A stretch of DNA of 42,997 bases from a virus, in IMG/VR virus record IMGVR_UViG_3300045988_028876, positions 1 to 42,997 of that record. The stretch is one strand, 5' to 3'. The position numbers and the translations under genes were made by a program. The notes beneath the pieces were generated by a model. It was not told where the DNA came from and did no database searches. It saw only the letters and a program-made list of their open reading frames with translations. Below are positions 2,052 through 20,718 of the stretch, in pieces. Within the stretch, counting starts at the first letter, position 1; every line of letters begins with the position of its first letter.

Positions 2052-2060
2052 TGGTATAAT
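2052..2060 (+). promoter_or_regulatory. extended -10 promoter (TGgTATAAT) for 2080..2355
   Basis: Consensus TATAAT with a TG at -15/-14. The -35 is weak. It lies about 20 nt upstream of the SD GAGGTGA. Confidence 0.5.
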
Positions 2061-2079
2061 CGCCTTGAGGTGACCAAGC

Positions 2080-2355: not shown

Positions 2356-2359
2356 ATCC

Positions 2360-3175: not shown

Positions 3176-3211
3176 ACTGTCCTTGTCAGCTAACCATAGC
3201 TGAGACTTAAA

Positions 3212-3728: not shown

Positions 3729-4072
3729 GCATCGGCCTCTCCCTCTGGCGGTCGGCGGTAAAATGTATCACGGTAAAACAATTCCGTCTGAGCGAATCCC
3801 TTTGACGTAAAAAACCATATTTGTTTATATGGTTCGTCCTTAACGGTGCTTGGGAATATCCAGCCATATTTCACACTATAAACCGGATTGACTTTTGCTT
3901 CCGATTTTAGTTCTTCCCACGTCAGCGGCTTGTTCGGCGGGGTGAGGGTGGGCGCATGGACCACCATCTGCATAACGCGCCGCAGGATCGATTTTTCCTT
4001 CCCATCCTCGGTGTCGTTGTACCATGAGACGAGCGCGTTATTTAACGCATATGCGTCAATCAGTCTTAACAT
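3725..4072 (-). CDS. hypothetical protein (115 aa)
   Basis: Co-oriented ORF. Its stop lies inside the right copy of the 10-bp repeat. Confidence 0.6.
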   Translation of the reverse strand: MLRLIDAYALNNALVSWYNDTEDGKEKSILRRVMQMVVHAPTLTPPNKPLTWEELKSEAKVNPVYSVKYGWIFPSTVKDEPYKQIWFFTSKGFAQTELFYRDTFYRRPPEGEADA

Positions 4073-4244
4073 TGGTTAGCGCCTCCACTCTCTCCATCTG
4101 TTTCTTCCACGCCCACGATGTAAGCGGCGTTCCGCACTTTGGGCAGTAAACAACCCCCTTTTCAATCCAAGACGGCCAGTTAGCTTGATCTCGGCATTTC
4201 TCACATCCTGTCCACACCTTCTCCACCTGCTCCCGTGTAATCAT
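4056..4244 (-). CDS. small zinc-ribbon protein (62 aa)
   Basis: CEKC...CPKCG. ATGA-type overlap with the methyltransferase gene. Confidence 0.55.
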   Translation of the reverse strand: MITREQVEKVWTGCEKCRDQANWPSWIEKGVVYCPKCGTPLTSWAWKKQMERVEALTNVKTD

Positions 4245-5050
4245 TCAGCACCTTCCAATCTGCTCTTTGCGACCTCGAATATCGCAAGGTCGTTTTCCAT
4301 TCCGATGTATTTCCTATCGGTCTGTAAACAAGCTACTCCGATAGACCCGCTCCCCATGCAGCAATCTAGCACTGTGTCTCCTGCGTTTGTGTAAGTAAGT
4401 ACAATCTGTTCGCATAGCCACACCGGCTTTTGCGTTGGATGCAGGCATAACTTTTGTTTGTCGCTCGGCCCATATAAGACATCCCTCGGATATCTGTCTG
4501 TGCTGTCATACCCAGTTTTCGCGTAATCATGATATACTTCCCCCGTCCTACAGTTCCGCTTATGTGCCGCCGTTGAAATTTTCCGTTTGTGTCCGTGAGT
4601 TATCTGTGGATTGTAGGTCGGCGGATGGTCATAAAATATCAGGATGTTTTCGTGAGCTTTCATCGGCATTTTTTTGGCGTTCAGGTGTCCGGTTGCCTGC
4701 GTCTTTTCCCATATCCATTCGTATCGTAGCTCCTGCAGGTTACTTACACCGAGCACCTTGTCAAATGGCGTTTGAGCGAACAGAGCCTTACAGCCGCCGG
4801 GGCGGACTATTCGTTTTGCTTGTTGCCAAAACCGTTCCAAATCAATCGGGGTATCCCACCTGCAGTTTGTGGTCCCGTATGGCAAATCGGTAAAGAGAAG
4901 ATCAACGCTGTTTTCCGGCAGAGCAGGCATAAGGTCAAGGCAGTCGCCGAATAGCAGCACCCCCGCCTCCGTCAGCCGCCGAGCCGCCTCGTGATCGCCC
5001 AACAGGGCTAATTTGATGTCATCCATTGCTTTCTCAGCCTCCGCCAGCAT
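4241..5050 (-). CDS. orphan DNA methyltransferase (N6-adenine/N4-cytosine, beta-class motif order)
   Basis: TDLPYG (DPPY-like motif IV) precedes HPTQKP and DCCMGSGS (FxGxG motif I). No adjacent restriction enzyme gene. The start is uncertain (5050 or 5026). Confidence 0.88.
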   Translation of the reverse strand: MLAEAEKAMDDIKLALLGDHEAARRLTEAGVLLFGDCLDLMPALPENSVDLLFTDLPYGTTNCRWDTPIDLERFWQQAKRIVRPGGCKALFAQTPFDKVLGVSNLQELRYEWIWEKTQATGHLNAKKMPMKAHENILIFYDHPPTYNPQITHGHKRKISTAAHKRNCRTGEVYHDYAKTGYDSTDRYPRDVLYGPSDKQKLCLHPTQKPVWLCEQIVLTYTNAGDTVLDCCMGSGSIGVACLQTDRKYIGMENDLAIFEVAKSRLEGAE

Positions 5051-5116
5051 CTCCTAAACCATTCGTTCCACTTTGCGCAGTTCTCCGTTCTACAGGTTTC
5101 CGCTTTTTCACAGGTT

Positions 5117-5464
5117 TCACAGGGGCTGCCTTCCATAGCTGATTTTCACCACCCAATCATACCGCTTCTCAAACGGGATCAGCTTGTCCCCACATATCCG
5201 GGCCAGGTTCTCATCCAGCTTTTCCCTGCAATAGTCCGCGTTTGCCTTCTTGGTTAGAGCGTCGGCGTACTTGTCAAAATTCGCCTCTACCCCATGCAGC
5301 ACCCTCAAAAGCCGCTCATACCCAAACGTGTCCTTGCCCATGACCTCCGGGTCGTTGAGCGTCAGTGAGACCATGTCCATCATGAATTGGGTGTATGTCT
5401 GCTGTACAGCAATCTGGATGGCCTCCCGCTCCGCCTTGAGCCGGTCTGAGAAATTCTTACCCAT
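5117..5464 (-). CDS. hypothetical protein (115 aa)
   Basis: Start at MGKNFSD, with an ATGGGTAA overlap on the resolvase stop. The longer track ORF is rejected. Confidence 0.6.
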   Translation of the reverse strand: MGKNFSDRLKAEREAIQIAVQQTYTQFMMDMVSLTLNDPEVMGKDTFGYERLLRVLHGVEANFDKYADALTKKANADYCREKLDENLARICGDKLIPFEKRYDWVVKISYGRQPL

Positions 5465-5783
5465 CTCTTGCCTCCCACTCCCGGTATATAGCCATAAAGT
5501 CCTTCGCATCCAGGCAAACCACCCACGGCCTGTTGTTGGACCTGTGAAATACAATGGGTATCTCCCCCGGCTTTGCGTCCCGCTTGGCCTGTCCAAGAGC
5601 CTCCCGCATGTTCATGCGTTCCACATACTTGCACTCGATGTGCAGACCAGGAAGTCCCACGATGTCCGCCGCATCCCCGGTGTTCCCGCAGTATTGCGCC
5701 GTCCTGCGGCACTCATATCCCTCATCCCGCAAGAAGCGCACAAGGCTCAGTTCTCCACGCTTGCCCTTCTGTTTGCTATTCAT
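5457..5783 (-). CDS. Hjc-like PD-(D/E)XK Holliday-junction resolvase
   Basis: KGKRGELSLVRFLRDEGYECRR...DIVG...IECK matches the G-x-x-E...D...E-x-K nuclease pattern. Confidence 0.65.
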   Translation of the reverse strand: MNSKQKGKRGELSLVRFLRDEGYECRRTAQYCGNTGDAADIVGLPGLHIECKYVERMNMREALGQAKRDAKPGEIPIVFHRSNNRPWVVCLDAKDFMAIYREWEARDG

Positions 5784-5932
5784 TCTTCCATCACCACCCG
5801 CAGCAGCGCCACCGCCAGTTTGATGCGCTCCGCCGCGTCCAGATAGTCCTTCCCCGTGGCGGAGAGCAGCGCAATATCCGCCTGCCGTTTGGCCTCATCC
5901 AGCACCCGCCGCCTTGCTTCGTTTCGCTCCAT
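5780..5932 (-). CDS. small helical protein (50 aa)
   Basis: MERNEARRRVLDEAKRQADIALL... ATGA overlap with the resolvase. It also overlaps the helicase 3' end by 38 nt, so it is uncertain. Confidence 0.3.
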   Translation of the reverse strand: MERNEARRRVLDEAKRQADIALLSATGKDYLDAAERIKLAVALLRVVMEE

Positions 5933-7226
5933 CCAATTTCATCTCCCAGGTATATACTTTTCGGTCCCCGCCGCCTGCGGGATAGAAGCGCCTATCACAC
6001 TCATTGAAGTCCAGCTTCACTGGCCCCAGCGCGCCAAACTCCCGATTTTTCAATACCGTCAGGACCGTAGAGCACCCGACCTGACCCAAGCGGTCCTCCG
6101 GCACCCGCTCCACCTTGAGCACATTGTCTGCCCGGTTGGTGATGTCACCGGAGCCGCCCACGTCGTCCGCTTCCACGGAAGCCTTTCCGGTTTTTCTCGG
6201 GTGAGCCACCAGATGAACGTGGACATCTCTGCCTTTGGCAAAGGCCACCAGCCGCCCGGCAAATTCGCTCTGCGCCTGCCAGACCCCCAACTGGGCCTCC
6301 TGCTTGAGCCGTGCCGTCATGATGTTGTCCACCAAGAATGTGTCGCAGCCATACCGCCGCCGCGCGTACTCAAACAACCCCAGGATGTTGTCCTCGTCAT
6401 GGGCGTTGTCCTTGCGGATGTCCGCCAAGAACAGACAGCCATCCCACCACCTGTCGATTTCCCTTCTGGCCTCTCCATCCACGGCGAAGATCTTCCGGTC
6501 CGTTCCAGGGGCCGTCCCTGTGGTCACATAGCGGTAGCCTGCCGCCTGCTGCAGCATGGCGAGCTTAAACTGGGCCGCTGGCATCTCCCCAGAGTACACG
6601 CATACCCGGTGGGACTGGTTCACCGCGTCCAGCAGCACTTGGCTCAGAAGTGTGCTCTTGCCCTCGCCCCGCTTTCCGGTCCATACAGACAGCTCCCCGC
6701 CGGAAAACCCGCCAATCATGCTATCCAGCCCCTGGATGCCAGACAATACCCGCCTGGCGTTTTTCCGTGCCTCGGTGTCCACATCCGCCAGGTTGATTAA
6801 CCCCTGCACTGGCACCTCCTGCGCCATAAAAAGCAGTTCTCCGATGTTCCGGTATCCCCGTTTGTCGATGTACTCACGGACATTCTGACACCCTTTGAAC
6901 GCCTCCGCCGCAGGCAGCAGAACAGGCATCTGCCAACGGGCGGACAGCTCTTCCGCCGCTTCCGCCCGCCCCGGGCTGGGCGGGGCCGCCAGGAATACAT
7001 AAGGCCATTGCTGCGCCCACCCGGCACAGGCTCCCACGTCATCCCAGCTTGCAAGGGCCGACCTGCATACCGCGTTTACCGCCACAGCCTGCACATCCTC
7101 CGGGTCCAATAACCACCACAGGCCCGTCGCTTGGGCCGGGTCCATGAACTCCGGGCGGTAGAGCAGGACGTTATCTCCGAGACAGCTCGTCCCAGTAGTC
7201 ACCAAGTCCACCTCCGTCCAGTTCAT
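5895..7226 (-). CDS. DnaB-family replicative helicase (RecA-type ATPase domain)
   Basis: Walker A GKRGEGKST, Walker B FLVDNIM, and VHLVAHPRK. The start could be 7145 instead, to avoid a 56-nt overlap. Confidence 0.8.
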   Translation of the reverse strand: MNWTEVDLVTTGTSCLGDNVLLYRPEFMDPAQATGLWWLLDPEDVQAVAVNAVCRSALASWDDVGACAGWAQQWPYVFLAAPPSPGRAEAAEELSARWQMPVLLPAAEAFKGCQNVREYIDKRGYRNIGELLFMAQEVPVQGLINLADVDTEARKNARRVLSGIQGLDSMIGGFSGGELSVWTGKRGEGKSTLLSQVLLDAVNQSHRVCVYSGEMPAAQFKLAMLQQAAGYRYVTTGTAPGTDRKIFAVDGEARREIDRWWDGCLFLADIRKDNAHDEDNILGLFEYARRRYGCDTFLVDNIMTARLKQEAQLGVWQAQSEFAGRLVAFAKGRDVHVHLVAHPRKTGKASVEADDVGGSGDITNRADNVLKVERVPEDRLGQVGCSTVLTVLKNREFGALGPVKLDFNECDRRFYPAGGGDRKVYTWEMKLDGAKRSKAAGAG

Positions 7227-7764
7227 CCTCCCACCGCCCCTGGTTCAGCCAAGTGGCTGGATTTGGGATGTACTTCCCGTTATCCTTCATCCATTGGCCG
7301 CTGTGCTTTTGCGCTTCAATGGCCTGTAATAGTACATTGAGCGGGGTCTTTACCCGCCTGAACGCATTGAGCGCCGCCTTTTTCCCGACCTTCTTGGGGT
7401 AAGCCGCCCAAAACAATTCGAACGTAGCCCCCTGGGGGGTATGGGGGGACATATTGTCCTTGTCTTTGTCCTTGTCTTTGGTATGTTTCGTATCCGCTCG
7501 TATACGTTCGCATACGTCCGTATTCCATCGTACAGACACATTTTTAGCGTTCTGGCGGCATCTGGCCTCATACTTTTCTCTGTCTCTGTCTATCTGTGAC
7601 TGCCAACTCGGAAAAAGAAACCGTTCGTTCCCACGAAGCTCTGGCACTTCGCCAGTCATGCTGTATTGTAGGCATGCCTTGAGAAGTCGCCCACACTCCG
7701 CGTCGTTGAGGGGTTCTAATGCCTTTAGGTAGCTGTGATAGACATTGAACGAATCAAGTGCCAT
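7171..7764 (-). CDS. replication initiator / replisome-organizer-like protein
   Basis: FELFWAAYPKKVGKKAALNAF and YIPNPATWLNQGRWED are motifs common in phage replication proteins. It sits upstream of the helicase. Confidence 0.6.
   Translation of the reverse strand: MALDSFNVYHSYLKALEPLNDAECGRLLKACLQYSMTGEVPELRGNERFLFPSWQSQIDRDREKYEARCRQNAKNVSVRWNTDVCERIRADTKHTKDKDKDKDNMSPHTPQGATFELFWAAYPKKVGKKAALNAFRRVKTPLNVLLQAIEAQKHSGQWMKDNGKYIPNPATWLNQGRWEDELDGGGLGDYWDELSRR
7456..7479. repeat. 2 x 12-nt tandem repeat (GTCCTTGTCTTT) encoding a KDKDKDKD linker
   Basis: Read directly from the sequence, inside 7171..7764. Confidence 0.9.
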
Positions 7765-7776
7765 TGTCCCACCGCC

Positions 7777-8167
<391 letters not shown>

Positions 8168-8175
<8 letters not shown>

Positions 8176-8389
8176 GGGGTTCTTCCTCCAATCTGTACTC
8201 AGCGTAGCTCACGCTCTCGCCGTAACGGTTCTTCCCGGACACCATCCGCCGGGTGATGCGGTGCCCCTCATGCCGCAGGTCCAAAATTCTTGCCCCCAGC
8301 CGCATGATGCCCAGGTCGTTGTATGCCTGCAATGGGTTGATGCTCCCAAAATCCCGCATGTACCGGAGCACCCGGTCAGTCTGCTTCAA
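8168..8389 (-). CDS. winged-helix DNA-binding protein (HTH_39-like, 73 aa)
   Basis: TTG start with GGGAGG 7 nt upstream. Sequence LRYMRDFGSINPLQAYNDLGIMRLGARILDLRHEGH. Confidence 0.55.
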
Positions 8390-10894: not shown

Positions 10895-10923
10895 TTGCAT
10901 TTGGCCCGGAGGAATGGTAAACT
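10895..10923 (+). promoter_or_regulatory. promoter TTGCAT-N17-TGgTAAACT
   Basis: -35 at 10895..10900 and -10 at 10918..10923. The -35 overlaps the SD of the minus-strand gene 10706..10879. Confidence 0.5.
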
Positions 10924-10929
10924 ATCCCT

Positions 10930-11005
10930 GCGAGCCCGTTGGCGTTATCAATGGGTTTCGCTGCCCTGGTCGGTGTCGTTACCACTGGCCGGGGCGTTTT
11001 TATTT
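10930..11005 (+). ncRNA. candidate ~75-nt small RNA (sRNA-B), convergent with the 3' end of the Xis-like gene
   Basis: 11-bp stem 10963..10973 / 10985..10995. It is perfect only on the plus strand, through G-U pairs. It is followed by GUUUUUAUUU. No ORF. Confidence 0.4.
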
Positions 11006-12171: not shown

Positions 12172-12540
12172 GTGGAGACCATCAACGAAAGAATTGCGTG
12201 GTGTATAAAAGATGCCGGGATCAAAAAGGCTGAATTTGCTCGCAGACTTAACCTTTCACAGCCGTTTGTTTCAGAGCTGTGTTCTGGGAAAAACAACCCA
12301 AGCGACCGCACCATTGCTGATATTTGCCGCAAGTTTAATATTTCCGAGCTCTGGCTACGTACCGGAGAAGGCGAGCCCCATATTCAGAGGGACGAGGACG
12401 AAGAGTTCCTTGAAGTCATGGAACAAATCCATATGTCTGATGATGATTTGATAAAGCGGATTATCAAGGCGTATTGGTTTATGGAGGACGACGAAAAAGC
12501 CGTCATCAGAAAACTGATAGACGGCTTTACAAAAAAATAA
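12172..12540 (+). CDS. XRE-family HTH repressor (CI-like, no peptidase domain)
   Basis: GTG start 9 nt after AGGAGG. HTH segment IKKAEFARRLNLSQPFVSELCSGKNNPS. It diverges from the lytic operon and sits next to the int region. Confidence 0.8.
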   Translation: METINERIAWCIKDAGIKKAEFARRLNLSQPFVSELCSGKNNPSDRTIADICRKFNISELWLRTGEGEPHIQRDEDEEFLEVMEQIHMSDDDLIKRIIKAYWFMEDDEKAVIRKLIDGFTKK

Positions 12541-12576
12541 GGCCCCGGTTTCCCGGAGCCTTGTCGATTATTTTTT
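12539..12576. terminator. bidirectional intrinsic terminator between convergent genes
   Basis: Stem AAGGCCCCGG / CCGGAGCCTT, flanked by an A7 run upstream and a T6 run downstream. Confidence 0.6.
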
Positions 12577-12702
12577 GTGTAGTTTTTCGAGGATGAGGGC
12601 ACGTGTGAGTACAGACTTTAGATAAGTCTCGTCTTTGTTTCGATCCAAGATAAGTCCAATTTCTTTTCTGATGATATTAACAGATTCTTCCTTCGGCGTC
12701 AT
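12568..12702 (-). CDS. small protein (44 aa)
   Basis: GGGAGGAGGG SD. Sequence MTPKEESVNIIRKEIGLILDRNKDETYLKSV... It ends at the bidirectional terminator. Confidence 0.4.
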   Translation of the reverse strand: MTPKEESVNIIRKEIGLILDRNKDETYLKSVLTRALILEKLHKK

Positions 12703-12974
12703 TTAGCGCCCTCCTCCCAGTTTGTGCCCCTCCTAATCAGAATGATATAAATTTTCTAATTTTGGCACATTTTGTAGCCTCTAATTGCACTATACCCCTT
12801 TTTTCTTCCGAATTTTGTCGGAGCCTGTCAGAATTAGAAATTTTGTTCCCTGTGCTCCAAATTATAGAACGTTCGTTCTATTTATTCAAGATGGGATTCT
12901 TGCCAAAGATTGACATACTATTTTGTAGAGGTCATAGATTTTCGGTTTTTGAAGAAAAGTCCTGTTTTTTGCAC

Positions 12975-12983
12975 TGTTAAGAT
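12975..12983 (+). promoter_or_regulatory. possible extended -10 (TGtTAAGAT) for the lipoprotein gene
   Basis: Located in a 330-bp AT-rich intergenic region. An alternative TTGACA at 12910..12915 has only a poor -10. Confidence 0.3.
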
Positions 12984-13036
12984 ATTATTGTTTTCAACCG
13001 CCGGAGGGCGGTAAAAATAGAAGGAGGATAAAGTCA

Positions 13037-13978
13037 ATGAGAAAGAAACTTTTAGCAATGCTTCTGTGCGGAGTTATGGTGGTGTCACTGGCCTCCTGTG
13101 GAGAAAGCGCAGAAGAAAGCAACTCGCCTAGTCAAAACGAACCCCAGCAAACAATATCTAACGAACCGACCCAGAGCGATGACCAGGAGCCGGAAAACCA
13201 TACTCCCGAAGGCGACATCACATTTAGCGAATTGGTGGTCGTTGACAACGATGAGTGTTCCGTCAAGATTACTGGGGTTGACCCTGATGACATCTGGGGC
13301 TATACATTAAAGGCTGAATTAGAAAATAAGTCCGCAGATAAAAACTATATGTTCTCTGTTCAGAGTGCCTCCGTAGACGGTCTGCAAAGTGACCCGTTTT
13401 TTGCTACCGAAGTAGCTGCCGGCAAGAAATCTGTGAATGATATTTCTTTTACAGATTCTGACCTTGAAGAGAACAACATCTCTTTTACCGACATTGAACT
13501 TACAATCCGTGTTTATGACAGCGACGATTGGGCTGCAGATGCCGTTGCAACAGAAACCGTCCACATTTATCCATACGGGCAAGAAAGTGCGAAGGTATTT
13601 GAGCGGACTGCTCAAGATTCGGACAACGTCATTTTGGATAACGAATATGTCACTGTTACTGTAATCGGATATGATGAGGACAGCGTTTGGGGATACACCG
13701 CAGACCTCTTCCTCCAAAACAAGTCCGACAAAGAAATTATGTTTACAGTCGAAGACTCTTCTGTAAACGGTTATATGTCCGATCCATTCTGGGCCGTCTC
13801 TGTCTTGCCCGGAAAATGTGCGTTTAGTTCTATGTCCTGGTCTGATTCTGCTCTTGAAGAGATTGGGGTGGATGACGCAAGCGGCATTGAAGAGATAGAG
13901 TTCTTACTTCGTGTATATGACGGAAACGATTGGACAGCCGATGATTTTGCCAGTGAAACTATTACACTGAACCCATAA
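13037..13978 (+). CDS. secreted lipoprotein with an internal two-domain duplication (313 aa)
   Basis: Signal peptide plus lipobox MRKKLLAMLLCGVMVVSLASC. Two ~120-aa repeats share VWGYT..L.NKSDK..MF.V...SVNG..SDPF and RVYD..DW.AD. Low GC. Confidence 0.85.
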   Translation: MRKKLLAMLLCGVMVVSLASCGESAEESNSPSQNEPQQTISNEPTQSDDQEPENHTPEGDITFSELVVVDNDECSVKITGVDPDDIWGYTLKAELENKSADKNYMFSVQSASVDGLQSDPFFATEVAAGKKSVNDISFTDSDLEENNISFTDIELTIRVYDSDDWAADAVATETVHIYPYGQESAKVFERTAQDSDNVILDNEYVTVTVIGYDEDSVWGYTADLFLQNKSDKEIMFTVEDSSVNGYMSDPFWAVSVLPGKCAFSSMSWSDSALEEIGVDDASGIEEIEFLLRVYDGNDWTADDFASETITLNP

Positions 13979-14036
13979 CGCCACAAAACTTGAATAAAAT
14001 ATCCGCCCCCGGTGCTGGAACACCAGAGGCGGACAA

Positions 14037-14075
14037 GGGGCAGAAGCTTTTGTGGACCATCTGCCCCTTTATTCT
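14037..14075 (+). terminator. intrinsic terminator after the lipoprotein gene
   Basis: GGGGCAGA-N15-TCTGCCCC followed by TTTATTCT. Confidence 0.6.
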
Positions 14076-14098
14076 ACCGGAACGAAGGGGAAAAGTCA

Positions 14099-15217
14099 AT
14101 GAATTGTATGAAGTGCAAAGCAGACTTGCCAGACGGTGCGCTGTATTGCCCGACGTGCGGCAAAAAGCAAGCGCCGGAAAAGCGAAAGGCCCTAAAACGT
14201 GCCAACGGGACTGGGACTGTATATAAGCTCCAGGGCCGCAGGAAACGCCCGTGGGTGGCCGCAAAGAACAAGGTCATAATCGGTTACTATGAAAAAAAGA
14301 CGGAGGCTATAGAGTCTTTAGAACGCCTTGCCGGGAAAGACCTGACCGAACGGTACAATATGACATTTGCAGAGGTGTTTCGAGGGTGGAGCGAAGAACA
14401 TTATAAAACACTAACAAAAAGCGGGATCACTTCTTATGATATAGCCTACAATGTGTTCTCTGCGCTCCACAACAAAAAATTCCGTGATTTGCGCACCTCT
14501 GATTTTCAAGCAGAGCTGGATAAAATCAAAGGAAAATCCCACTCCACCATGTCAAAGCACAAGCAGCTTATCACGCAGATGTCTCAATGGGCCATCAGGG
14601 AAGAAATCTGCACGACCAACTTTGCAAAATTCGTCCGGTTGCCGGAGACCGTAAAGAAGGAAAAAGAAGTATTCTCCGCCGAAGAAATCAAAAAGCTTGA
14701 AGAAGATGGAAGCGAAGCGGCAAGAATCGTCCTCATGCTCCTAGCCACTGGTATGCGAATTGGGGAACTGTTTTCGCTCCCGTTAGAGGATTACCACAAA
14801 ACGTATGTTATAGGCGGGTCTAAGACGGAGGCAGGAAAAAACCGAGTCATCCCGATAAGGCCGGAGGGTCGGAAGCATTTTGAATACTTCGCCCAGCAAG
14901 CAGACGGGGCGTTACTTTTATCGGGGTACACGGGGCAAAAAATATATGCAAACTATCGAGGACGTGATTATTACCCTCTGCTAAAGCGGCTCGGAATTAA
15001 AAAGAAAAGTCCTCACGCTACTAGGCATACATACGCATCCAGAGCTGTGAAAGAAGGCATACCACCAGAGATTTTACAAAAAATATTAGGCCACGCCGAC
15101 TATTCTACTACGGCAAACGTATACACCCATATTGACATCAAAACACTTGTGGAAGCTGTTGACGTTACTAGCTCGTTACTAACAAATAAAAAGCCGAGAG
15201 AAAAAGAAAATCCCTAG
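14099..15217 (+). CDS. int: tyrosine integrase with N-terminal zinc ribbon
   Basis: MNCMKCKADLPDGALYCPTCG. Catalytic pattern ATGMRIGEL, HATRHTYAS and LGHADYSTTANVYTH. The start at 14099 has a GAAGGGGAAAAG SD. Confidence 0.92.
   Translation: MNCMKCKADLPDGALYCPTCGKKQAPEKRKALKRANGTGTVYKLQGRRKRPWVAAKNKVIIGYYEKKTEAIESLERLAGKDLTERYNMTFAEVFRGWSEEHYKTLTKSGITSYDIAYNVFSALHNKKFRDLRTSDFQAELDKIKGKSHSTMSKHKQLITQMSQWAIREEICTTNFAKFVRLPETVKKEKEVFSAEEIKKLEEDGSEAARIVLMLLATGMRIGELFSLPLEDYHKTYVIGGSKTEAGKNRVIPIRPEGRKHFEYFAQQADGALLLSGYTGQKIYANYRGRDYYPLLKRLGIKKKSPHATRHTYASRAVKEGIPPEILQKILGHADYSTTANVYTHIDIKTLVEAVDVTSSLLTNKKPREKENP
15134..15187 (+). repeat. left copies of attP-flanking direct repeats (GACATCAAA at 15134..15142; GTTACTAACAAAT at 15175..15187)
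   Basis: The same two words recur in the same order at 15371..15379 and 15391..15403. Confidence 0.8.
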
Positions 15218-15242
15218 AACCGTTGCGGCTCTAGGGATTTCT
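15212..15242 (+). terminator. weak terminator-like hairpin overlapping the int stop
   Basis: CCCTAGA-N11-TCTAGGG followed by ATTTCTT. Confidence 0.35.
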
Positions 15243-15290
15243 TGGTGGAGACTACAGAACTCGAATCTGTGACCTCTTGCGTGTGAAGCA
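15243..15290 (-). other. attP core: 3' 48 nt of a tRNA-Val(CAC) (anticodon loop to CCA); not a complete tRNA gene
   Basis: Minus strand reads tgc/TTCACAC/gcaag AGGTC ACAGA TTCGAGT TCTGT AGTCTCC A CCA. This gives a canonical T-arm, variable loop and acceptor 3' strand. The 5' half is absent. Confidence 0.75.
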
Positions 15291-15291
15291 T

Positions 15292-15363
15292 ATCAGGACC
15301 ATATTTTACGATGGTTGAAGATGGTTTGTCCTGATTTTTCAACGGTTTCACGTTCCGTGAAAC
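15292..15363. promoter_or_regulatory. two inverted repeats next to the core (ATCAGGAC..GTCCTGAT; GTTTCACG-ttc-CGTGAAAC)
   Basis: 8-bp arms at 15292..15299 / 15328..15335 and at 15345..15352 / 15356..15363. No U-tract follows, so these look like candidate protein-binding sites. Confidence 0.45.
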
Positions 15364-15370
15364 ACTTCCA

Positions 15371-15403
15371 GACATCAAAGAACAGTTTCGGTTACTAACA
15401 AAT
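15371..15403 (+). repeat. right copies of attP-flanking direct repeats
   Basis: GACATCAAA(N11)GTTACTAACAAAT. It reads DIKEQFRLLTNY*, against the integrase C-terminus DIKTLVEAVDVTSSLLTNK. Confidence 0.8.
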
Positions 15404-15413
15404 TACTAGCATT

Positions 15414-15743
15414 TTATATGCCTTGTAACTTTCTCATCACGCCATTATATACCCGTGGGTTGGCGACATGGAGCGTATCCATTAAATCATCCATGACCTC
15501 CCATACGTCCGCCTGCCTGCGTCCGGAAATGGCCCGGATAAACTCACTGTCGCCATATGCCTCAACAGACGTTGAACCGACAGCGGCGGCGGAATAGCTT
15601 GCCTCATATACAGGTTCCGCCTCCTTATGGTTCATCTGGTTTCGGATGGTGTAAAGGTTAGCCAGTTTGGCGTATGCCGGATAACTGGATTCCCCGTACT
15701 CCAAGCGGGCGATCTCAATGTCAATTTCTTTGGGGTCCAGCAT
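15414..15743 (-). CDS. cargo operon gene 8, hypothetical (109 aa)
   Basis: TAAGGAGGTGG SD. Sequence MLDPKEIDIEIARLEYGESSYPAYAKLANLYTIRNQM... Confidence 0.65.
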   Translation of the reverse strand: MLDPKEIDIEIARLEYGESSYPAYAKLANLYTIRNQMNHKEAEPVYEASYSAAAVGSTSVEAYGDSEFIRAISGRRQADVWEVMDDLMDTLHVANPRVYNGVMRKLQGI

Positions 15744-15755
15744 CGGACCACCTCC

Positions 15756-16163
15756 TTAGACCTTTTCCAGCTGGTCCATGGCCCGGCGCAGAATCTCCTT
15801 CTCCCGCTCATTTGCGCCGCCCATCATGTCCTCCATCTGCTCCATCATGTGTTCTTTGGCATCTCCACGGGAATACACCCGGTCAGGATACATCCGTCCA
15901 GTCCGGCTATACCGCCCCATGCTGTCACGCTTACGGCCCCGGTAGCTGCTGCCACGGCCATAGGTGCCACGCATATCGGCTTCCCAGTCGCCGTCCCGGC
16001 TGTATCCGTCGTCCTCTTCCAGCATCTCGATTTTATCAATATTCTTGATGGTGTCGGTCAGCTTGTGGGCAGCTTCAAGGTCTCCGGCGGACATCTCCGG
16101 CTTCTTGGCAATCTCGTCCAGCTCCATGCAGAGCTTTTCTTTCAGTTCGTGCATATATTCCAT
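15756..16163 (-). CDS. cargo operon gene 7, charged R/G/S/Y-rich-centre protein (135 aa)
   Basis: GGAAGGAGAA SD. Helical ends flank the central stretch GRGSSYRGRKRDSMGRYSRTGR. Confidence 0.65.
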   Translation of the reverse strand: MEYMHELKEKLCMELDEIAKKPEMSAGDLEAAHKLTDTIKNIDKIEMLEEDDGYSRDGDWEADMRGTYGRGSSYRGRKRDSMGRYSRTGRMYPDRVYSRGDAKEHMMEQMEDMMGGANEREKEILRRAMDQLEKV

Positions 16164-16180
16164 GTTGATTCTCCTTCCGT

Positions 16181-16582
16181 TTATGTGGTAGGCGTGGTGG
16201 TCCCGGGAGTCGTCCCATCAATGCTGGCAAGATTGTTGCTGGGAGAGCAGCACGGCTGGCCAAGCATTCGGAACGAACCGCCGGTGGGCGTGGTCACCAC
16301 ACAAACGGAGTAACGGGTGCGGGTACGGATTCCGCAAGCGGTGACCTGGGCGCAGTTGCGCTTCGTGAGCGGGTAAAGGGTCGTGCCCGTTCCAATGGTG
16401 ACGTACACAGGTGCATTGATCGTGGTCGTGTCGGGGATAGCCTGCGCCACAACAATGCAGTATTTCTCCCCGTTGTTGTATGCTCCGGCGGGTAGATTGA
16501 TTTCCAAATTTCCGCCAGTAAATGTGACCGCCTGGCTCAATACCAGATTGTCACACAGGCGGCAAACAGGTTTGCAGGACAT
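16181..16582 (-). CDS. cargo operon gene 6, Cys-rich beta-type protein (133 aa)
   Basis: TTGGAGG SD. It starts MSCKPVCRLC, has internal Cys residues and QPCCSPS, and ends in a T/P-rich tail. Confidence 0.65.
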   Translation of the reverse strand: MSCKPVCRLCDNLVLSQAVTFTGGNLEINLPAGAYNNGEKYCIVVAQAIPDTTTINAPVYVTIGTGTTLYPLTKRNCAQVTACGIRTRTRYSVCVVTTPTGGSFRMLGQPCCSPSNNLASIDGTTPGTTTPTT

Positions 16583-16592
16583 ATAAATACCT

Positions 16593-16630
16593 CCAAAAAG
16601 TCAGAGGCGACAGACGATTAGCCTGCCGCC
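16593..16630 (-). terminator. possible attenuator/terminator between cargo genes 5 and 6
   Basis: GGCGGCAG-N9-CUGUCGCC (one G-U pair), then UCUGACUUUUUGG. Confidence 0.35.
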
Positions 16631-16677
16631 CCGAAGTAATCACGGCAAAGCCGGAAGATGTAAACAGTTAGCGCAGT

Positions 16678-17457
16678 TTAGCAGCCGCAGCCACAATTGC
16701 CGTAGCTCCCGCAGGAACCATAAGCCGCCTGGCTGGCCCAAGGGTTGCAGGTCAGATAGGCCGGGGTGGGGCAAGGCCGCAGGGTGTTCACAAGGTAATT
16801 GTTCTGCGCCTGCTGGCTTGCGGCAAGCTGCAAGCCGAAAATCTGCTGGCTCTGGGCCTGGATTTGGGCATCCTTCGCAGCCATCTCCTGGGAAGTCAGC
16901 TTGTCGAGAATCGCCCGCGTGTTGGCGTTGGCGTTTTCCAGCAGGTCGCGGGTGCTCATGTTGATGGTGTTCCGGGTGTCGCAGGACTGGGTGGCGAGGT
17001 TGTAGTTGGTGTCGGCAAAACCGCGCTCCACCTGCCGCTGGGTCTGGCAGCAACAGTCGGCAAGCTGTGCCTGGACGGCGTTGTTGCCCTGCATGATCGC
17101 CATCTGGGTTGCATTGCCATTGGTCAGGATGGCGGTGTTTACGCCGTTGATCTGCTGGGCGGTGGCATAGAACCCATCACACAGGCCCTGCTGCACGGTG
17201 TCCAGCTTCCGCTCCACCTGCGCAAAGTCGGAGGCGAGGACGTAGTTGTCGATGGCACCAGAGCCGGAGGGCGTAGAGCCACCATTTCCGTTGCCACCCC
17301 AACCGCCGCGATTCCAACCACCGGCAAAGATGAAGAGGAACAAGATAATGATCCACCAGCTGCCATCATTGCCCCAGCCGTTTCCGTTACCGTTGCCGCT
17401 CGTGGAAGAGGCGGGTACAACAGGCATCGTGAAGGGGGTATCAGTTCCGAGAGACAT
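16678..17457 (-). CDS. cargo operon gene 5, membrane-anchored N/Q/A-rich helical protein with Cys clusters (259 aa)
   Basis: AAAGGAG SD. G/N-rich N-terminus, TM segment WWIIILFLFIFAGGW, the motif LADCCCQTQ, and a C-terminus CGSYGNCGCGC. Confidence 0.7.
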   Translation of the reverse strand: MSLGTDTPFTMPVVPASSTSGNGNGNGWGNDGSWWIIILFLFIFAGGWNRGGWGGNGNGGSTPSGSGAIDNYVLASDFAQVERKLDTVQQGLCDGFYATAQQINGVNTAILTNGNATQMAIMQGNNAVQAQLADCCCQTQRQVERGFADTNYNLATQSCDTRNTINMSTRDLLENANANTRAILDKLTSQEMAAKDAQIQAQSQQIFGLQLAASQQAQNNYLVNTLRPCPTPAYLTCNPWASQAAYGSCGSYGNCGCGC

Positions 17458-17514
17458 AGTATTGCTCCTTTCTGAATGTTGATATATTGCTAAATCGTGG
17501 CCACGATTAAAGCC

Positions 17515-17736
17515 TTATTTCCCGAGCATCTGCTGAAATGCCCTTGCCATGCCCTGCAATTCGTTGAATTGCGCCTGTGACATCTGGCCGGAGTTCAGAA
17601 GCTCCTGCACCTTTGCCTTTGGGTCACCCTGGAAGGTTTTTTGAAACTCGTTGAATTGCTGGATCATGCCCATCACGTTCCCCATAGGGCCAGGGAGATT
17701 GCCACCGCCCATTGCGTTGAAAAACGGATTACTCAT
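17515..17736 (-). CDS. cargo operon gene 4, G/M/N/Q-rich small protein (73 aa)
   Basis: AAAAAGGAGG SD. Sequence MSNPFFNAMGGGNLPGPMGNVMGMIQQFNEF... Confidence 0.65.
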   Translation of the reverse strand: MSNPFFNAMGGGNLPGPMGNVMGMIQQFNEFQKTFQGDPKAKVQELLNSGQMSQAQFNELQGMARAFQQMLGK

Positions 17737-18187
17737 CTGCTCCAGCCTCCTTTTTGGTTCTGGTGGTCTTAGGTGCGCTCAGAGCGTCCACACGGGCCGC
17801 TAGAGCGTCTAACTGCTCACGGGTGGCATACTCTACCGCAGGGGGCTGCGGGGCCTGTGTGGGGCTTACAGGGGCCGCTGTGGCCGTCCTCTCCACTAGG
17901 TCGTATATCTTGGTGGTGGGCTTGCCGGATGCGTCAGCTTGCTTGAGGTAGATAACAGGTGCGGTGCTGTCCCACAGGGCAACGGCACTGTTTGGGGCCA
18001 CCGGGTACTCGAATGCCGCCTGCCCGCCGGGAACCCACACAATCTGGGTGTTGTTCTGCTGCTGGGGTGGTTGTTGCATATTTTGCAACGGTTGGTACTG
18101 CCCCGCCCGAAGCTGTGCCAGCTGGTCAGGCATAGGCGGCTGATAAGGTTGGTATGGTGTATAATAAGGCTGATATCCGTATGCCAT
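17729..18187 (-). CDS. cargo operon gene 3, Y/Q/P-rich N-terminus plus a conserved-looking core (152 aa)
   Basis: MAYGYQPYYTPYQPYQPPMPDQ..., then IVWVPGGQAAFEYPVAPNSAVALWD. Confidence 0.65.
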   Translation of the reverse strand: MAYGYQPYYTPYQPYQPPMPDQLAQLRAGQYQPLQNMQQPPQQQNNTQIVWVPGGQAAFEYPVAPNSAVALWDSTAPVIYLKQADASGKPTTKIYDLVERTATAAPVSPTQAPQPPAVEYATREQLDALAARVDALSAPKTTRTKKEAGADE

Positions 18188-18189
18188 AG

Positions 18190-18555
18190 TTAGTCAGTCC
18201 TTTCCCAAAAATAGAGTACGATCTCGTTCCCGCTGTCCCAGGAGTCATAAAGCACACAGTCCCGGATACACACCACATGACCAGACAGGGCAAGGATATA
18301 GGTCCCATGCGGGTGGCTGTCCGCAAACTCCGCCACGGTCACGTCCTCCGGGGCCAGCTCCCGGCGATAGCCATGCCGCCGCAGATATGCCCCCCATGTG
18401 GCGTTAGCTGATGGCATATCCCCCATCAAGCCGCCCTCTACGCAGAGTCCCAGGTAAGTGGTGTACCAGTCCTGGTCCAGCGCCTTAGAAAGCGCTCGAA
18501 CGGTGCAATCGCCTACGTTACGCCCAGCGGGATTCGGGTTGTAATGCGTCCACAT
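18190..18555 (-). CDS. cargo operon gene 2, putative papain-like Cys-His-Asp fold protein (121 aa)
   Basis: YNPNPAGRNVGDCTVRA (Cys), SGHVVCIRD (His) and YDSWDS (Asp), in papain-like order. No signal peptide. Confidence 0.65.
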   Translation of the reverse strand: MWTHYNPNPAGRNVGDCTVRALSKALDQDWYTTYLGLCVEGGLMGDMPSANATWGAYLRRHGYRRELAPEDVTVAEFADSHPHGTYILALSGHVVCIRDCVLYDSWDSGNEIVLYFWERTD

Positions 18556-18691
18556 GGCGGTTATGTTCCTCTACCTCTGTCACATATCGTTCAAGACCGT
18601 TGTCATCTCCCTGGGCCATATACCAGAAAACCGCTTCTCTGGCACATTCGGGATTCATTCCAGTGGCAGTCAAGCGCTCCAAATAGGTCAT
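18518..18691 (-). CDS. possible cargo operon gene 1 (57 aa)
   Basis: MTYLERLTATGMNPECAREAVFWYMAQGDD... Weak SD and a 38-nt overlap with the next gene. This stretch could instead be a leader. Confidence 0.3.
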   Translation of the reverse strand: MTYLERLTATGMNPECAREAVFWYMAQGDDNGLERYVTEVEEHNRHVDALQPESRWA

Positions 18692-18710: not shown

Positions 18711-18775
18711 TAAAAAATAAGGAGGTCCGTGGGGAGGGCGGCGACGTGTACCAACCCTGTATCCCCACGTCCTCC
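18711..18775 (-). terminator. intrinsic terminator 2 of a tandem pair (13-bp interrupted stem plus UUAUUUUUU)
   Basis: GGAGGACGUGGGGA...UCCCCACGGACCUCC, followed by TTATTTTTT on the minus strand. Confidence 0.6.
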
Positions 18776-18789
18776 ATGTCTATATTTTC

Positions 18790-18828
18790 GCAAAAAAATT
18801 CCCCGGCTGGGGTTGCTCCCAGTCGGGG
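18790..18828 (-). terminator. intrinsic terminator 1 of a tandem pair
   Basis: CCCCGACUGGG-N6-CCCAGCCGGGG (one mismatch), followed by AAUUUUUUU. Confidence 0.65.
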
Positions 18829-18839: not shown

Positions 18840-19091
18840 TTATGCTTGATTTGTGTAAAGTTGCTTGGCGACTTCGGACACCTTCTTAAATACGTACTTT
18901 TCATGGGCGGCTACCGCTCCACGATACCAACCTAGTTCTGCCGCCACATCAATCTGGCCCCACTTATCAATATTTCGCCGCTTGGCAATCAGCTCATCGT
19001 CCCGGTGCAGGGCGGATTCATAGATAGCGGTTTCGAGTTGAGAGCGCAAGAGCTTGTCCAGCGGTTCTGGCAAATGTACTCTTGCGCTCAT
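18840..19091 (-). CDS. small sigma-70 region-4-like HTH protein (83 aa)
   Basis: ...DELIAKRRNIDKWGQIDVAAELGWYRGAVAAHEKYVFKKV resembles a region-4 type HTH. Confidence 0.5.
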   Translation of the reverse strand: MSARVHLPEPLDKLLRSQLETAIYESALHRDDELIAKRRNIDKWGQIDVAAELGWYRGAVAAHEKYVFKKVSEVAKQLYTNQA

Positions 19092-19104: not shown

Positions 19105-19419
19105 TCAACCTAGTCCAATTTTTGTCATCACAAACACAATCAGGCCTCCCACCACTGCCGAGATTACCGCCGCCACAACGGCCTCCCAGCGCTTTCCCGG
19201 TTTGCTCAGGAGGGTGTCCATTTTGCCGTCCAGGCCGTCCAGCTTATCCGTGATGGTGTCTAGCTTCGTCTCGTTGACCGCTTGCTTCGATTCCACCGTC
19301 CGCAGCCGGTCATAGATTTCAGCGTGGGCTTTCTGCCTGTTTTCTTTCTCGGACTTCATATCCTCTTCCAGCCGGTCCACGCGGGATGCCAGCACACAGT
19401 TCTTTTCACAATCGGGCAT
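19105..19419 (-). CDS. XhlA-like lysis-associated membrane protein
   Basis: GAAGGGAGGG SD. Coiled coil plus a C-terminal TM segment (WEAVVAAVISAVVGGLIVFVM), the architecture of PBSX XhlA. Confidence 0.55.
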   Translation of the reverse strand: MPDCEKNCVLASRVDRLEEDMKSEKENRQKAHAEIYDRLRTVESKQAVNETKLDTITDKLDGLDGKMDTLLSKPGKRWEAVVAAVISAVVGGLIVFVMTKIGLG

Positions 19420-19432
19420 ATAGGCCCTCCCT

Positions 19433-19756
19433 TCAAATGGGTGGTGATGGTGATGCGCTGTCATCCTCGATAAAGCCCTTTGACTTGGCCGCTTCGAATG
19501 TAATGCCGCCCTCTTTGTGGTCGCTGGCGCAGAGGCTGAAGTAAGCCTTGCAGCCAGCTATGATAATAGCCTCACCCACACCAACCCCGGCTGTCAGCCA
19601 GGCTGCTGCGGAGGTGTAGCCGTTTGTTATACACAGATACATCAGCGCTAGACATTCTTGCACGATGACGAACCCAGACAGAATGGTCAGCACTGCGATG
19701 ATCTTGTGCCACTCCAGCTTTTTGCGGCGCTTGAGCCGCTTACCCACGGCGCTCAT
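19433..19756 (-). CDS. multi-TM membrane protein, holin-like by position (107 aa)
   Basis: Basic N-terminus KRLKRRKK, then 2-3 hydrophobic segments. It lies directly downstream of the endolysin. Confidence 0.5.
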   Translation of the reverse strand: MSAVGKRLKRRKKLEWHKIIAVLTILSGFVIVQECLALMYLCITNGYTSAAAWLTAGVGVGEAIIIAGCKAYFSLCASDHKEGGITFEAAKSKGFIEDDSASPSPPI

Positions 19757-20513
19757 CGTACCGGGCGAAGAGTGCGCCCACCTGCTCCCGGGTGATTAGG
19801 TCCTGGGGATAGGTCACCGCGCCGCCAGGTTTGAAGATTCCAAGAGCCTCCACAGCGGCCTGGTCCTGCTGCTGGAACCAGTCGCTGGCCGGCTGCTCCC
19901 GCAGCTCCTGTCTATAGCGCTCCATGTTCTCCTTGAATTTCTCATAGCTGTCCATTTCAAGTTCCTCCTTGACATCATTCCGGAAATCATCCATGCTCTT
20001 TCCAAACCGGGGAAACCAGTGTTCCACGTCCCCGTGATTGCTGGCAATGCCTAACCTGGCCCCCTCTGCGTGGCAGATCACCACACCGTCCTCCATGGGG
20101 TCCAGCCCGTACATCTCACAAAGATAGGCCGTCAGCTCCACCGCCTCCCGGTAGACGGCGGCGAAATACTCCGGGTCTGTCAAGTCGTCCTCGCAGATCT
20201 CGAAGGAGATATGGGTGCTGTTTGCGTCGTCCCCGCAGTGCCAGCCCCGCATATTCCAGGGAAGGGTCTGATAGGTGGCAACGCTTCCGTCCGCCAGCAG
20301 CCCGATAAAGGCGTGAACACAGGCCCCCACGCCGGGGCGGTTCCAATCGTTGTTGTTCTGGTTCACGCCCAAAAGGCCGTCGTCCGGGCCGACATAGCGT
20401 TTCAGGTTCGGGTTTTCCGCCCCGGTGCTGTGGACCATCACCCCCTTGGGGGTAATCCAGCGGTTGGCCTTGTAGCAATCATTCTCCGTCAGATAGAGCT
20501 GGTGCAGGTTCAT
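19740..20513 (-). CDS. endolysin: N-acetylmuramoyl-L-alanine amidase (Amidase_2/PGRP-like)
   Basis: VMVHSTGAENP..., VHAFIG and WHCGDDANSTHISFEICED. The start at MNLHQ has a GGGGAGGG SD. Confidence 0.88.
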   Translation of the reverse strand: MNLHQLYLTENDCYKANRWITPKGVMVHSTGAENPNLKRYVGPDDGLLGVNQNNNDWNRPGVGACVHAFIGLLADGSVATYQTLPWNMRGWHCGDDANSTHISFEICEDDLTDPEYFAAVYREAVELTAYLCEMYGLDPMEDGVVICHAEGARLGIASNHGDVEHWFPRFGKSMDDFRNDVKEELEMDSYEKFKENMERYRQELREQPASDWFQQQDQAAVEALGIFKPGGAVTYPQDLITREQVGALFARYDERRG

Positions 20514-20514
20514 G

Positions 20515-20718
20515 CTATCCCTCCCCGTCCAGTACATTCTGTACCTTCTGGCTCTGAGTCCCGAAGTAGAACGCGATTATCACTGCGTAGATGGTCATGA
20601 AGTCCTGGGAAATTTGATTGGTGCAGGCCATGTAGGCGAATACCGCCGTCAAGGCCAGCGTCACCAAAGACTTGACCGATAGAAGGGTCGATAATCGTTT
20701 GATGATGTTGTCCATCAC
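20515..20718 (-). CDS. holin (two TM segments, 67 aa)
   Basis: SVKSLVTLALTAVFAYMAC and FMTIYAVIIAFYFG, with a charged C-terminus. Immediately upstream of the endolysin. Confidence 0.75.
   Translation of the reverse strand: MMDNIIKRLSTLLSVKSLVTLALTAVFAYMACTNQISQDFMTIYAVIIAFYFGTQSQKVQNVLDGEG

Follow-up and report, generated by a model that had tools for sequence, protein, structure and literature searches.

What do eight small genes of odd amino acid composition contribute to a phage that carries them between its lysis genes and its attachment site (attP)? The question is raised by a 42,997-nt stretch of DNA (positions 1 to 42,997 of the virus record IMGVR_UViG_3300045988_028876, hereafter the window), which represents a siphovirus-type phage or prophage with genes for a terminase, an SPP1-type portal, a collagen-like fibre, a fibre with an S74 chaperone domain, an Amidase_2 endolysin and a tyrosine integrase. 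The eight open reading frames (ORFs) are named here after the length of their products in amino acids (aa) and run, in the direction of transcription, from g57 through g121, g152, g73, g259, g133 and g135 to g109. The original prediction had described them as one co-adapted cargo module in a lysogenic-conversion slot. Our analysis demonstrates that the block is a single instance of an accessory cassette that is self-contained and exchanged horizontally among tailed viruses. The core of this cassette consists of five slots, which hold a g152-type protein, a g73-type protein, g259, g133 and a g135/DUF7841-type protein, and the cassette is restricted neither to temperate phages nor to one envelope type.

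All eight ORFs were recovered on the minus strand at exactly the predicted positions (Table 1). The good translation signals that had been proposed were found as well, with a Shine-Dalgarno motif of the GGAG/AGGA type 6-12 nt upstream of each ORF, and the proposed location also holds, with the amidase and XhlA-like genes upstream and an attP core identical to tRNA-Val downstream. By composition count g259, g133, g152, g73 and g135 are as unusual as had been claimed. Homologue counts (4803 for g133, at least 7961 for g259 and 1848 for g121) identify the ORFs as real genes; g57, which had been listed as tentative, is real too, with a homologue in 64 of 98 related loci.

Conservation of the gene set was assessed in 108 related loci, all of which encode relatives of g133 and were fetched with g133 as bait. 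With the proteins of the window alone as queries the other genes looked sporadic; a prophage of Muriventricola aceti (L082) carries the same kinds of genes, with differing sequences, in the same slots. Slot occupancy was counted using queries from three variants, namely the kinds found in the window, in L082 and in the Clostridium perfringens phage PMQ04. Slot A (g152 in the window) is filled in 95 of 98 loci, slot B (g73) in 92 of 98 and the downstream slot E (g135) in 76 of 80, a DUF7841 protein being present in 68. Wherever a locus is long enough to contain both genes, g259 almost always immediately precedes g133. Co-occurrence across related loci thus upholds the idea of a module for the five slots and not for the full set of eight, from which g57, g121 and g109 drop out as variable. 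Searches of Pfam and NCBIfam with the eight proteins gave no matches; the PHROG matches of the cassette proteins (PHROGs 16490, 21718, 22984 and 28802, E 1e-15 to 1e-42) are all of unknown function.

The cassette moves as a unit between genomes of different make-up. The assembly collection has 1307 indexed blocks with a g259 protein identical to that of the window. This protein occurs in three different phage backbones, and it is also found in an element whose end abuts the host genes feoB, spoIVB and spo0A. In this last locus (L112, positions 1748-7585 and 12232-16373) the cassette follows the gene of a 1945-aa LPD3-domain protein and has neither lysis genes nor an integrase nearby; this copy probably forms the end of a mobile element of another kind. 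In Dulem virus 33 (L001, PP511792) an int-alpA RNA (RF02996) and an opposite-strand gene annotated as an endonuclease lie between the g259 and g73 homologues (positions 7615-8253) of an otherwise co-linear cassette.

To chart the distribution further, tblastn searches of GenBank phages were conducted with g259 and its relatives; the virulent status of PMQ04 and of the crAss-like genomes was taken from their annotation. Homologues of g259 are encoded by six cultured C. perfringens phages. In PMQ04 the entire module is present with its gene order unchanged, 3.3 kb after the holin gene; all genes are co-directional and no integrase is annotated. Crassvirales of two families carry three or four slots 0-1.2 kb after their holin and endolysin genes, and their g259 homologues are annotated as "spike protein/glycoprotein" or "outer capsid protein/viral fiber". 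In the crAss-like genomes cr125_1 and cr53_1 the holin and LysB-like genes are followed by one for a DUF7841 protein (Pfam E 2.8e-43) that has an R/G/Y/D tail, then by the g259 homologue and a gene for a small beta-rich protein; the corresponding small protein of cr116_1 retains the C-x-P-x-C motif of g133. The late genes of cr125_1 (L114, NC_055900), its g259 homologue included, contain many in-frame TAG codons, so that translations with table 11 show false stops, a pattern that would fit reassignment of this stop codon in the lineage. A plaque-forming Bacteroides uniformis phage has three or four slots among its recombination genes, and the Enterobacter phage N5822 has a g259 homologue after its tail-fibre gene. 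Two viruses of Methanomassiliicoccales encode a g259 homologue, in vir215 between the tail genes and the integrase, and no other cassette slot was recognised in either of them. Where a source is recorded, it is for most carriers a gut or faecal sample. The argument that the slot beside attP betrays lysogenic conversion is not supported by this distribution, which includes PMQ04, Crassvirales and the plaque-forming B. uniformis phage for the module and archaeal viruses for g259. The cassette occurs in temperate viruses and in viruses without an annotated integrase, and it therefore appears to serve a viral function rather than to be a lysogen-specific conversion set.

The most widespread component is g259. 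It is composed of an acidic, G/N-rich N-terminal tail, a single hydrophobic segment (WWIIILFLFIF), an N/Q/A-rich helical domain with the motifs GLCDGFY, CCC and RPCPxPAYxxCNPW, and a Cys-rich tail (CGSYGNCGCGC), with 11 Cys in total. A profile search of 1.84 billion representative proteins returned 2350 clusters at 50% identity, and the best 150 clusters of the family are all stand-alone proteins of ~120-340 aa. Among the family representatives the hydrophobic segment is present in 124 of 130 and the CCC cluster in 114 of 124, with a mean of 9.8 Cys, and family alignments contain conserved Cys residues. In one related record (L079, IMGVR_UViG_3300045988_114747, positions 6349-7905) the g259 homologue is split exactly within the CCC cluster, the first exon ending in ...QNCC. 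It is interrupted by a group I intron (Rfam RF00028, 62 bits, 7337-7597) with a GIY-YIG homing-endonuclease ORF, and the second exon continues in the same frame as the first and ends in ...GCGCGC. Such group I introns usually target critical, expressed sites; on that basis the insertion inside CCC marks the cluster as critical and the gene as expressed. Between g259 and g133, a gap of 95 nt contains a GC-rich, terminator-like hairpin with a weak T-run, possibly an attenuator or a stabiliser of the mRNA; it may give the two halves of the cassette different expression levels.

The second core protein, g133, is predicted to be a small Cys-rich beta-sandwich. It starts with MSCKPVCRLC and contains nine Cys, and in its homologues seven Cys are invariant while C10 and C83 are kept in at least 90%. 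The AlphaFold2 (AF2) model has a predicted local distance difference test (pLDDT) value of 65, with 74-86 in the core. A Foldseek search of this pLDDT 65 model against PDB gave no fold match (best E 0.34), an Ena fold included. Against BFVD it retrieved members of its own family together with ~100-residue stretches of collagen-like and tail-fibre proteins (E 4e-4 to 1e-2, template modelling scores ~0.45-0.53) and one crAss-like protein that also carries DUF7841. Two other identities for g133 were rejected. A radical-SAM-like CX3CX2C motif at its N-terminus does not fit, as the spacing is not kept (MSCQYC in PMQ04) and the protein is a 133-aa beta-sandwich; a duplicate of the fibre tips of this phage does not fit either, as g133 has no significant similarity to any other ORF of the window. 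Sequence and profile searches of g259, g133, the slot-A protein and g121 against PDB sequences gave no match.

The remaining core slots are conserved in position and, to differing degrees, in sequence. g152 (slot A) is A/P/Q/Y-rich overall and comprises a disordered Y/Q/P-rich N-terminus, a conserved domain of ~50 aa, a short coiled coil and a charged tail. It aligns with the slot-A proteins of L082 and PMQ04 at 97% hhalign probability (E ~1e-11), and by this profile comparison the slot-A proteins of the three variants are homologous. In slot B the hhalign comparison of g73 with the L082 family was not significant, and g73 is accordingly treated as an analogous occupant rather than a homologue of the 80-aa protein of L082. 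The commoner slot-B family, that of L082 and PMQ04, has a motif that by eye resembles the M-rich N-termini of g259 homologues from crAss-like, Bacteroides and archaeal viruses. It reads A-[LM]-[LM]-Q...G-x-[ND]-P...[LM]-[LM] in both, and in these g259 proteins it precedes the hydrophobic segment. The likeness tentatively suggests a physical link between the slot-B protein and g259. Slot E holds in most loci an R/Y/D/G-rich protein with a DUF7841 domain, by which g135 is often replaced or with which it is paired; g135 itself has acidic helical ends and an R/G/S/Y-rich centre. Homology among the slot-B variants, and likewise among the slot-E variants, was not demonstrable.

Three genes are add-ons to this core. 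The first, g57, encodes a small acidic helical protein with no match in family databases and is lineage-restricted. g121, present in 11 of the 98 loci, matches phrog_3754 and had been noted for a Cys-His-Asp series in papain-like order, which is consistent with its predicted fold. Its AF2 model (pLDDT 95.9) finds, as best Foldseek matches in PDB, proteins that are all clan-CA-like and all weak (E 0.07-0.6, template modelling scores 0.3-0.5): Josephin-2 (E 0.07, probability 0.91), the C39 peptidase of ComA, staphopain, Tae4 and CHAP. The residues stand in the order C17...H93...D104; H93 and D104 are invariant among homologues and C17 is kept in at least 90%. A role as a C39-like processor of bacteriocins or of ribosomally synthesised and post-translationally modified peptides was rejected, as neither a transporter nor a precursor-like gene is present and most copies lack g121. 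The last gene, g109, was found in seven loci. Its position holds a DUF7841 protein in other copies of the cassette, the swap being seen between the loci L110/L113 and L111/L112. Neither g109 nor g135 is significantly similar to DUF7841 by hhalign, and both are regarded as analogous occupants of their slots and not as diverged forms of that protein.

How is the cassette switched? The original prediction let the unit start at g57; its eight genes stand, and its start does not, the unit beginning further upstream with an 83-aa gene (g83). A profile of 14 g83 homologues matched the TrfB/KorA structures 2n5g and 5ckt in PDB (E 1.7e-6, ~56 residues), and Pfam KORA matches nine of these 14 family members, with individual sequences below the curated cut-off. 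A g83 homologue is found upstream of the module in most related loci, and g83 is a probable transcriptional regulator of the cassette on the strength of its predicted helix-turn-helix domain. The two tandem terminators proposed for the region behind g83 proved to be of different kinds. The first is a plausible intrinsic terminator that would close the lysis/g83 transcript; its stem varies in sequence between loci and keeps its self-complementarity. The second is a full-length match to the structured RNA RAGATH-31 (Rfam RF03101; 78.7 bits against a gathering score of 71.8, E 7e-15, model positions 1-54 of 54), followed by UUAUUUUUU. The hairpin alone folds at -32.9 kcal/mol, one of its stem pairs is G-C, A-U or G-U across loci, and it stands ~83 nt before the first module gene in every g57-bearing locus with enough upstream sequence.

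Directly 5' of RAGATH-31 lies a 17-nt element (TGCGAAAATATAGACAT), which reads TGCGACAATATAGACAT in most loci. Most of 40 distinct upstream regions have it in near-identical form, ~9 of the 17 positions being invariant, and no conserved -35 was evident among these regions; we regard it as a candidate -10 region and/or operator. The weak extended -10 that had been proposed as the promoter of the block (18617-18625) lies inside g57, did not appear in the promoter scan and is not supported. Downstream of RAGATH-31 the octamer GGACGUGU overlaps the Shine-Dalgarno sequence of g57. Its last seven nucleotides (GACGUGU) are complementary to the terminal loop of RAGATH-31 (ACACGUC), with a duplex energy of -9.0 kcal/mol. 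In all 40 distinct sequences neither the loop nor its complement varies; the complement follows the hairpin at a distance of 15-18 nt and, in 38 of 40, precedes the ATG by 4-6 nt. The complement is retained where the first gene differs (L062, L008) and is therefore part of the RNA element. The pairing is a candidate pseudoknot that would occlude the ribosome-binding site (RBS) of the first gene, so that the leader may be able both to terminate at its U-tract and to sequester the first RBS.

The RAGATH motif series comes from the Weinberg and Breaker laboratories, and the acronym stands for RNAs associated with genes associated with twister and hammerhead. In keeping with that name, a related viral contig (L081, positions 10902-10967) has a type II hammerhead ribozyme (RF02276, 47.6 bits) ~6 kb downstream of the module. 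Rfam lists RAGATH-31 merely as a small RNA of unknown role; in the window it is a cassette leader in fixed position, with a U-tract and a loop complementary to the first RBS.

What, then, would the products do? We tentatively favour, as quite possible and a little short of an even chance, a membrane-attached, cysteine-linked multi-protein assembly with g259 and g133 at its centre, produced during lytic growth. The disulfide-cross-linked envelope or appendage-like assembly suggested earlier survives in part: a cysteine-linked membrane assembly is possible, and the appendage idea is not supported by any match to solved structures. In the scenario we propose, expression would be gated by g83 acting on the conserved 17-nt element, and transcripts would then have to pass the RAGATH-31 hairpin and its U-tract, while the loop could pair with the RBS region of the first gene. 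g259 would enter the cytoplasmic membrane via its single hydrophobic segment and form a long N/Q-rich helical stalk, whose CCC cluster and Cys-rich C-terminal tail may bind g133 by disulfides or shared metal ions to yield a stalk-and-knob unit. The M-rich g73 would supply in trans the motif that is fused to the g259 N-terminus in other lineages, and the Tyr/Gln/Pro-rich g152 and the Arg/Gly/Tyr-rich g135 or DUF7841 protein would scaffold or cluster the complex. Where present, g121 would add a papain-fold enzyme, perhaps for processing or cross-linking one of the components. The assembly would have its role at the membrane in the course of lytic growth. Lysis genes lie next to the cassette in three distant lineages, and this adjacency, although not universal, points to a lytic-cycle function near lysis.

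Several observations speak against this scenario. No component has a characterised homologue, and the interactions as well as the membrane insertion are ones that we infer throughout. The model of g133 is of moderate quality only (pLDDT 65, one good model of five). Neither g133 nor any other partner has a signal peptide, and an extracytoplasmic stalk-and-knob would therefore need holin-dependent release. The flank N-terminal to the hydrophobic segment of g259 is acidic (on average 2.9 D/E versus 0.6 K/R), which favours an outside N-terminus and an inside C-terminus, whereas the fused M-rich motif argues for a cytoplasmic N-terminus. The RAGATH-31 loop-RBS pairing is without covariation, both sides being invariant, and RAGATH-31 and g57 are absent at the gathering threshold from 21 scanned, more divergent module-bearing loci, so that the RNA gate would be lineage-specific. 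The loci baited with g133 are biased towards close relatives. Finally, the genomic position varies, from behind the lysis genes in the window and in Crassvirales to among the recombination genes in the B. uniformis phage and PMQ04 and behind the tail fibre in N5822. A more far-reaching picture, which we hold to be improbable, is that of a new device of bacterial and archaeal viruses in which the g259 stalk and g133 knob are joined by cysteine-metal or disulfide links and embedded in a prion-like (Tyr/Gln/Pro) and Arg/Gly/Tyr-rich scaffold, perhaps as a membrane-tethered condensate, and which is switched in this lineage by RAGATH-31 and a KorA-type repressor.

An unlikely alternative is that the block is host-affecting or protective cargo, a moron-type unit with its own promoter that confers superinfection exclusion or anti-phage defence via a membrane complex. 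Like morons and conversion cassettes such as lambda bor/lom or the sie genes next to att, it is attP-proximal and lies behind a terminator, has a regulator-like gene and a leader RNA of its own, is swapped between phage backbones, and sits in L112 at the edge of a non-phage-like element beside host genes; in the archaeal virus vir215, too, the g259 homologue lies between tail genes and integrase. The known exclusion proteins T4 Imm, P22 SieA and HK97 gp15 are membrane proteins, a general point in its favour. Yet such functions are exerted by single small proteins, and conversion cassettes comprise one or two genes, not a conserved set of five rich in disorder. A known defence system in the slot is not supported: ten proteins searched against PADLOC-DB v2 gave chance-level matches only (E 0.0035 or weaker), and family searches revealed no toxin, defence or exclusion domain and no nuclease, ATPase, NADase or other effector domain. 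Unlike morons, moreover, the module is carried by phages without an annotated integrase and by Crassvirales, inside co-directional late or early gene blocks, and g259 by archaeal viruses.

Equally doubtful in our view is a lysis accessory, in which a membrane protein and its partners would tune the timing or completeness of envelope disruption, or act right after hole formation, in a layout like that of holin regulators or spanins. The gene order speaks for it: the cassette follows directly on the amidase, putative holin and XhlA-like genes in the window, in L082 and in Dulem virus 33, in Suoliviridae directly on the genes for the holin and the LysB-like protein, in a Steigviridae phage 1.2 kb behind the endolysin gene and, as noted, not far behind the holin gene of PMQ04. 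A long helical, Cys-containing protein with a predicted N-terminal membrane anchor and a small Cys-containing partner encoded just downstream also recalls the two-component spanins (Rz/Rz1, P2 LysB/LysC), and partners lacking signal peptides could reach an external domain only via holin lesions. On the other hand, the hosts range from monoderm Firmicutes through diderm Bacteroidota and Enterobacter to wall-less archaea and have no envelope barrier in common, g133 has no lipobox or lipoprotein signal, and there is no sequence or profile similarity to spanins, while the cassette has three further conserved partners. The crAss-like genomes already have an annotated LysB-like protein, read as a spanin equivalent from its annotation, and in the B. 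uniformis phage, N5822 and L112 the module is away from lysis genes.

We consider it very unlikely that the genes encode a virion-associated split fibre or its assembly factors, with g259 as a trimeric coiled-coil shaft and g133 as a detachable knob, for example for adhesion. The resemblance to stalk-and-knob fibres (collagen-like tail fibres and, by analogy, BclA and C1q-type knobs) lies in the long N/Q-rich helix of g259 and in the superposition of g133 on fibre stretches in BFVD, and it is joined by the labels of the crAss annotators, the location beside virion genes in Crassvirales and behind the tail-fibre gene in N5822, and the gut or faecal origin of most sourced carriers. Shaft and knob are, however, separate polypeptides here, no significant PDB fold match was obtained, and the hydrophobic W/I/L/F segment, flanked by Gly runs and conserved in nearly all g259 representatives, is membrane-type and atypical for a soluble fibre. 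The crAss labels derive from remote coiled-coil similarity and not from experiment, the family occurs in records labelled as myo-, sipho- and podoviruses and in crAss-like viruses without tracking virion architecture, and in this siphovirus the genes are not in the structural block but behind the lysis genes and a terminator.

A spore-coat or endospore-appendage origin was rejected: g133 is small and beta-rich with N-terminal Cys, like the appendage subunits (Ena, DUF3992), and the hosts carry spo0A and spoIVB, but the module occurs in viruses of non-sporulating Bacteroides and g259 in archaeal viruses, the readings of g152 as GerQ-like, of g121 as transglutaminase-like and of the g259 N-terminus as YjcZ-like found no family matches, and for g133 and g259 there was no Pfam DUF3992 at E up to 1, no PDB sequence or profile match and no PDB fold match (model pLDDT 65). 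The alpha-ENA "sporesilk" was likewise rejected for g133 and g259, as the paper on it describes an unrelated protein. Searches of Pfam, PHROGs and PDB found no match of the cassette proteins to a known spanin or endospore-appendage family.

The g259 family spans phages of Firmicutes, Bacteroidota (including Crassvirales) and Enterobacter as well as archaeal viruses, and knowing what it does would allow thousands of gut-virome genes to be annotated in one step. RAGATH-31, an orphan motif, gains a genetic context, with a fixed leader position and, as its candidate target, the first RBS. Existing catalogues list the component families as of unknown function (PHROGs, DUF7841, RAGATH-31), and the novelty lies in the lack of a characterised relative rather than in a demonstrated mechanism. 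Literature searches found no description of the module or of its link to RAGATH-31, no mention of RAGATH-31 in the papers searched and no functional information on it, and no functional information on DUF7841 or on the cultured carrier phages. Cultured carriers exist in the C. perfringens phages PMQ04, CPD1 and 17DYC and the B. uniformis phage C3_41T2LP.

The features of the window that bear on the cassette are compiled in Table 1. On the minus strand the amidase gene is followed by a hydrophobic 107-aa ORF, the XhlA-like gene, g83 and the eight ORFs. The 107-aa ORF is a putative holin by position and hydrophobicity. At the other end, an exact-match search of genomes with the 34-nt attP core returned 104 contig stretches, nearly all titled Oscillospiraceae or unclassified Clostridia, and ARAGORN placed the identical 34 nt at the 3' end of tRNA-Val on the matched host contigs. 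This identity confirms attP, and the block therefore abuts it; for a partial tRNA at the attP of the window itself, ARAGORN and Rfam both gave no call.

Table 1. Position of the cassette genes, their control elements and the flanking genes in the window.
Feature	Coordinates	Strand	Basis
Tyrosine integrase	14096-15217		Family match; adjoins attP core
16-bp hairpin with T-run, terminator between converging cassette and integrase	15207-15241	-	Terminator scan
attP core, 34 nt	15243-15276	-	Identical to 3' end of host tRNA-Val(CAC)
g109, 109 aa, variable last gene	15414-15743	-	Present in 7 loci
g135, 135 aa, slot E	15756-16163	-	phrog_28802 match, E 7e-15
g133, 133 aa, core, predicted Cys-rich small beta-sandwich	16181-16582	-	AF2 model, 4803 homologues
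12-bp GC-rich terminator-like hairpin, weak T-run	16604-16632	-	Terminator scan
g259, 259 aa, core	16678-17457	-	phrog_16490 match, E 2e-42
g73, 73 aa, slot B, M/Q/N/G-rich	17515-17736	-	phrog_22984 match
g152, 152 aa, slot A	17729-18187	-	phrog_21718 match
g121, 121 aa, predicted minimal papain-fold Cys-His-Asp protein, optional	18190-18555	-	AF2 and Foldseek
g57, 57 aa, lineage-restricted first gene	18518-18691	-	ORF; 64 of 98 loci
GGACGUGU, candidate pseudoknot partner of RAGATH-31 loop	18698-18705	-	Overlaps g57 Shine-Dalgarno
RAGATH-31 (RF03101), then UUAUUUUUU	18721-18775	-	Covariance-model match
17-nt element TGCGAAAATATAGACAT, candidate -10 region and/or operator	18776-18792	-	Directly 5' of RAGATH-31
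Intrinsic-terminator-like hairpin with T-run, closing lysis/g83 transcript	18792-18828	-	Read from sequence
g83, 83 aa, KorA/TrfB-like helix-turn-helix, probable cassette regulator	18840-19091	-	Profile and Pfam
XhlA-like protein	19105-19464	-	Family match
Hydrophobic 107-aa ORF, putative holin	19433-19756	-	Position and hydrophobicity; no family match
Amidase_2 endolysin	19740-20537	-	Family match

Just before the integrase gene and on the same strand lies a 313-aa ORF (13037-13978, plus strand) without a Pfam match, which is paired with the integrase also in the sister phages L110 and L113. The latter, which carries an identical cassette, has a Tad2-like gene of the anti-Thoeris family (PF11195; L113, positions 6507-6743) just before its amidase gene.

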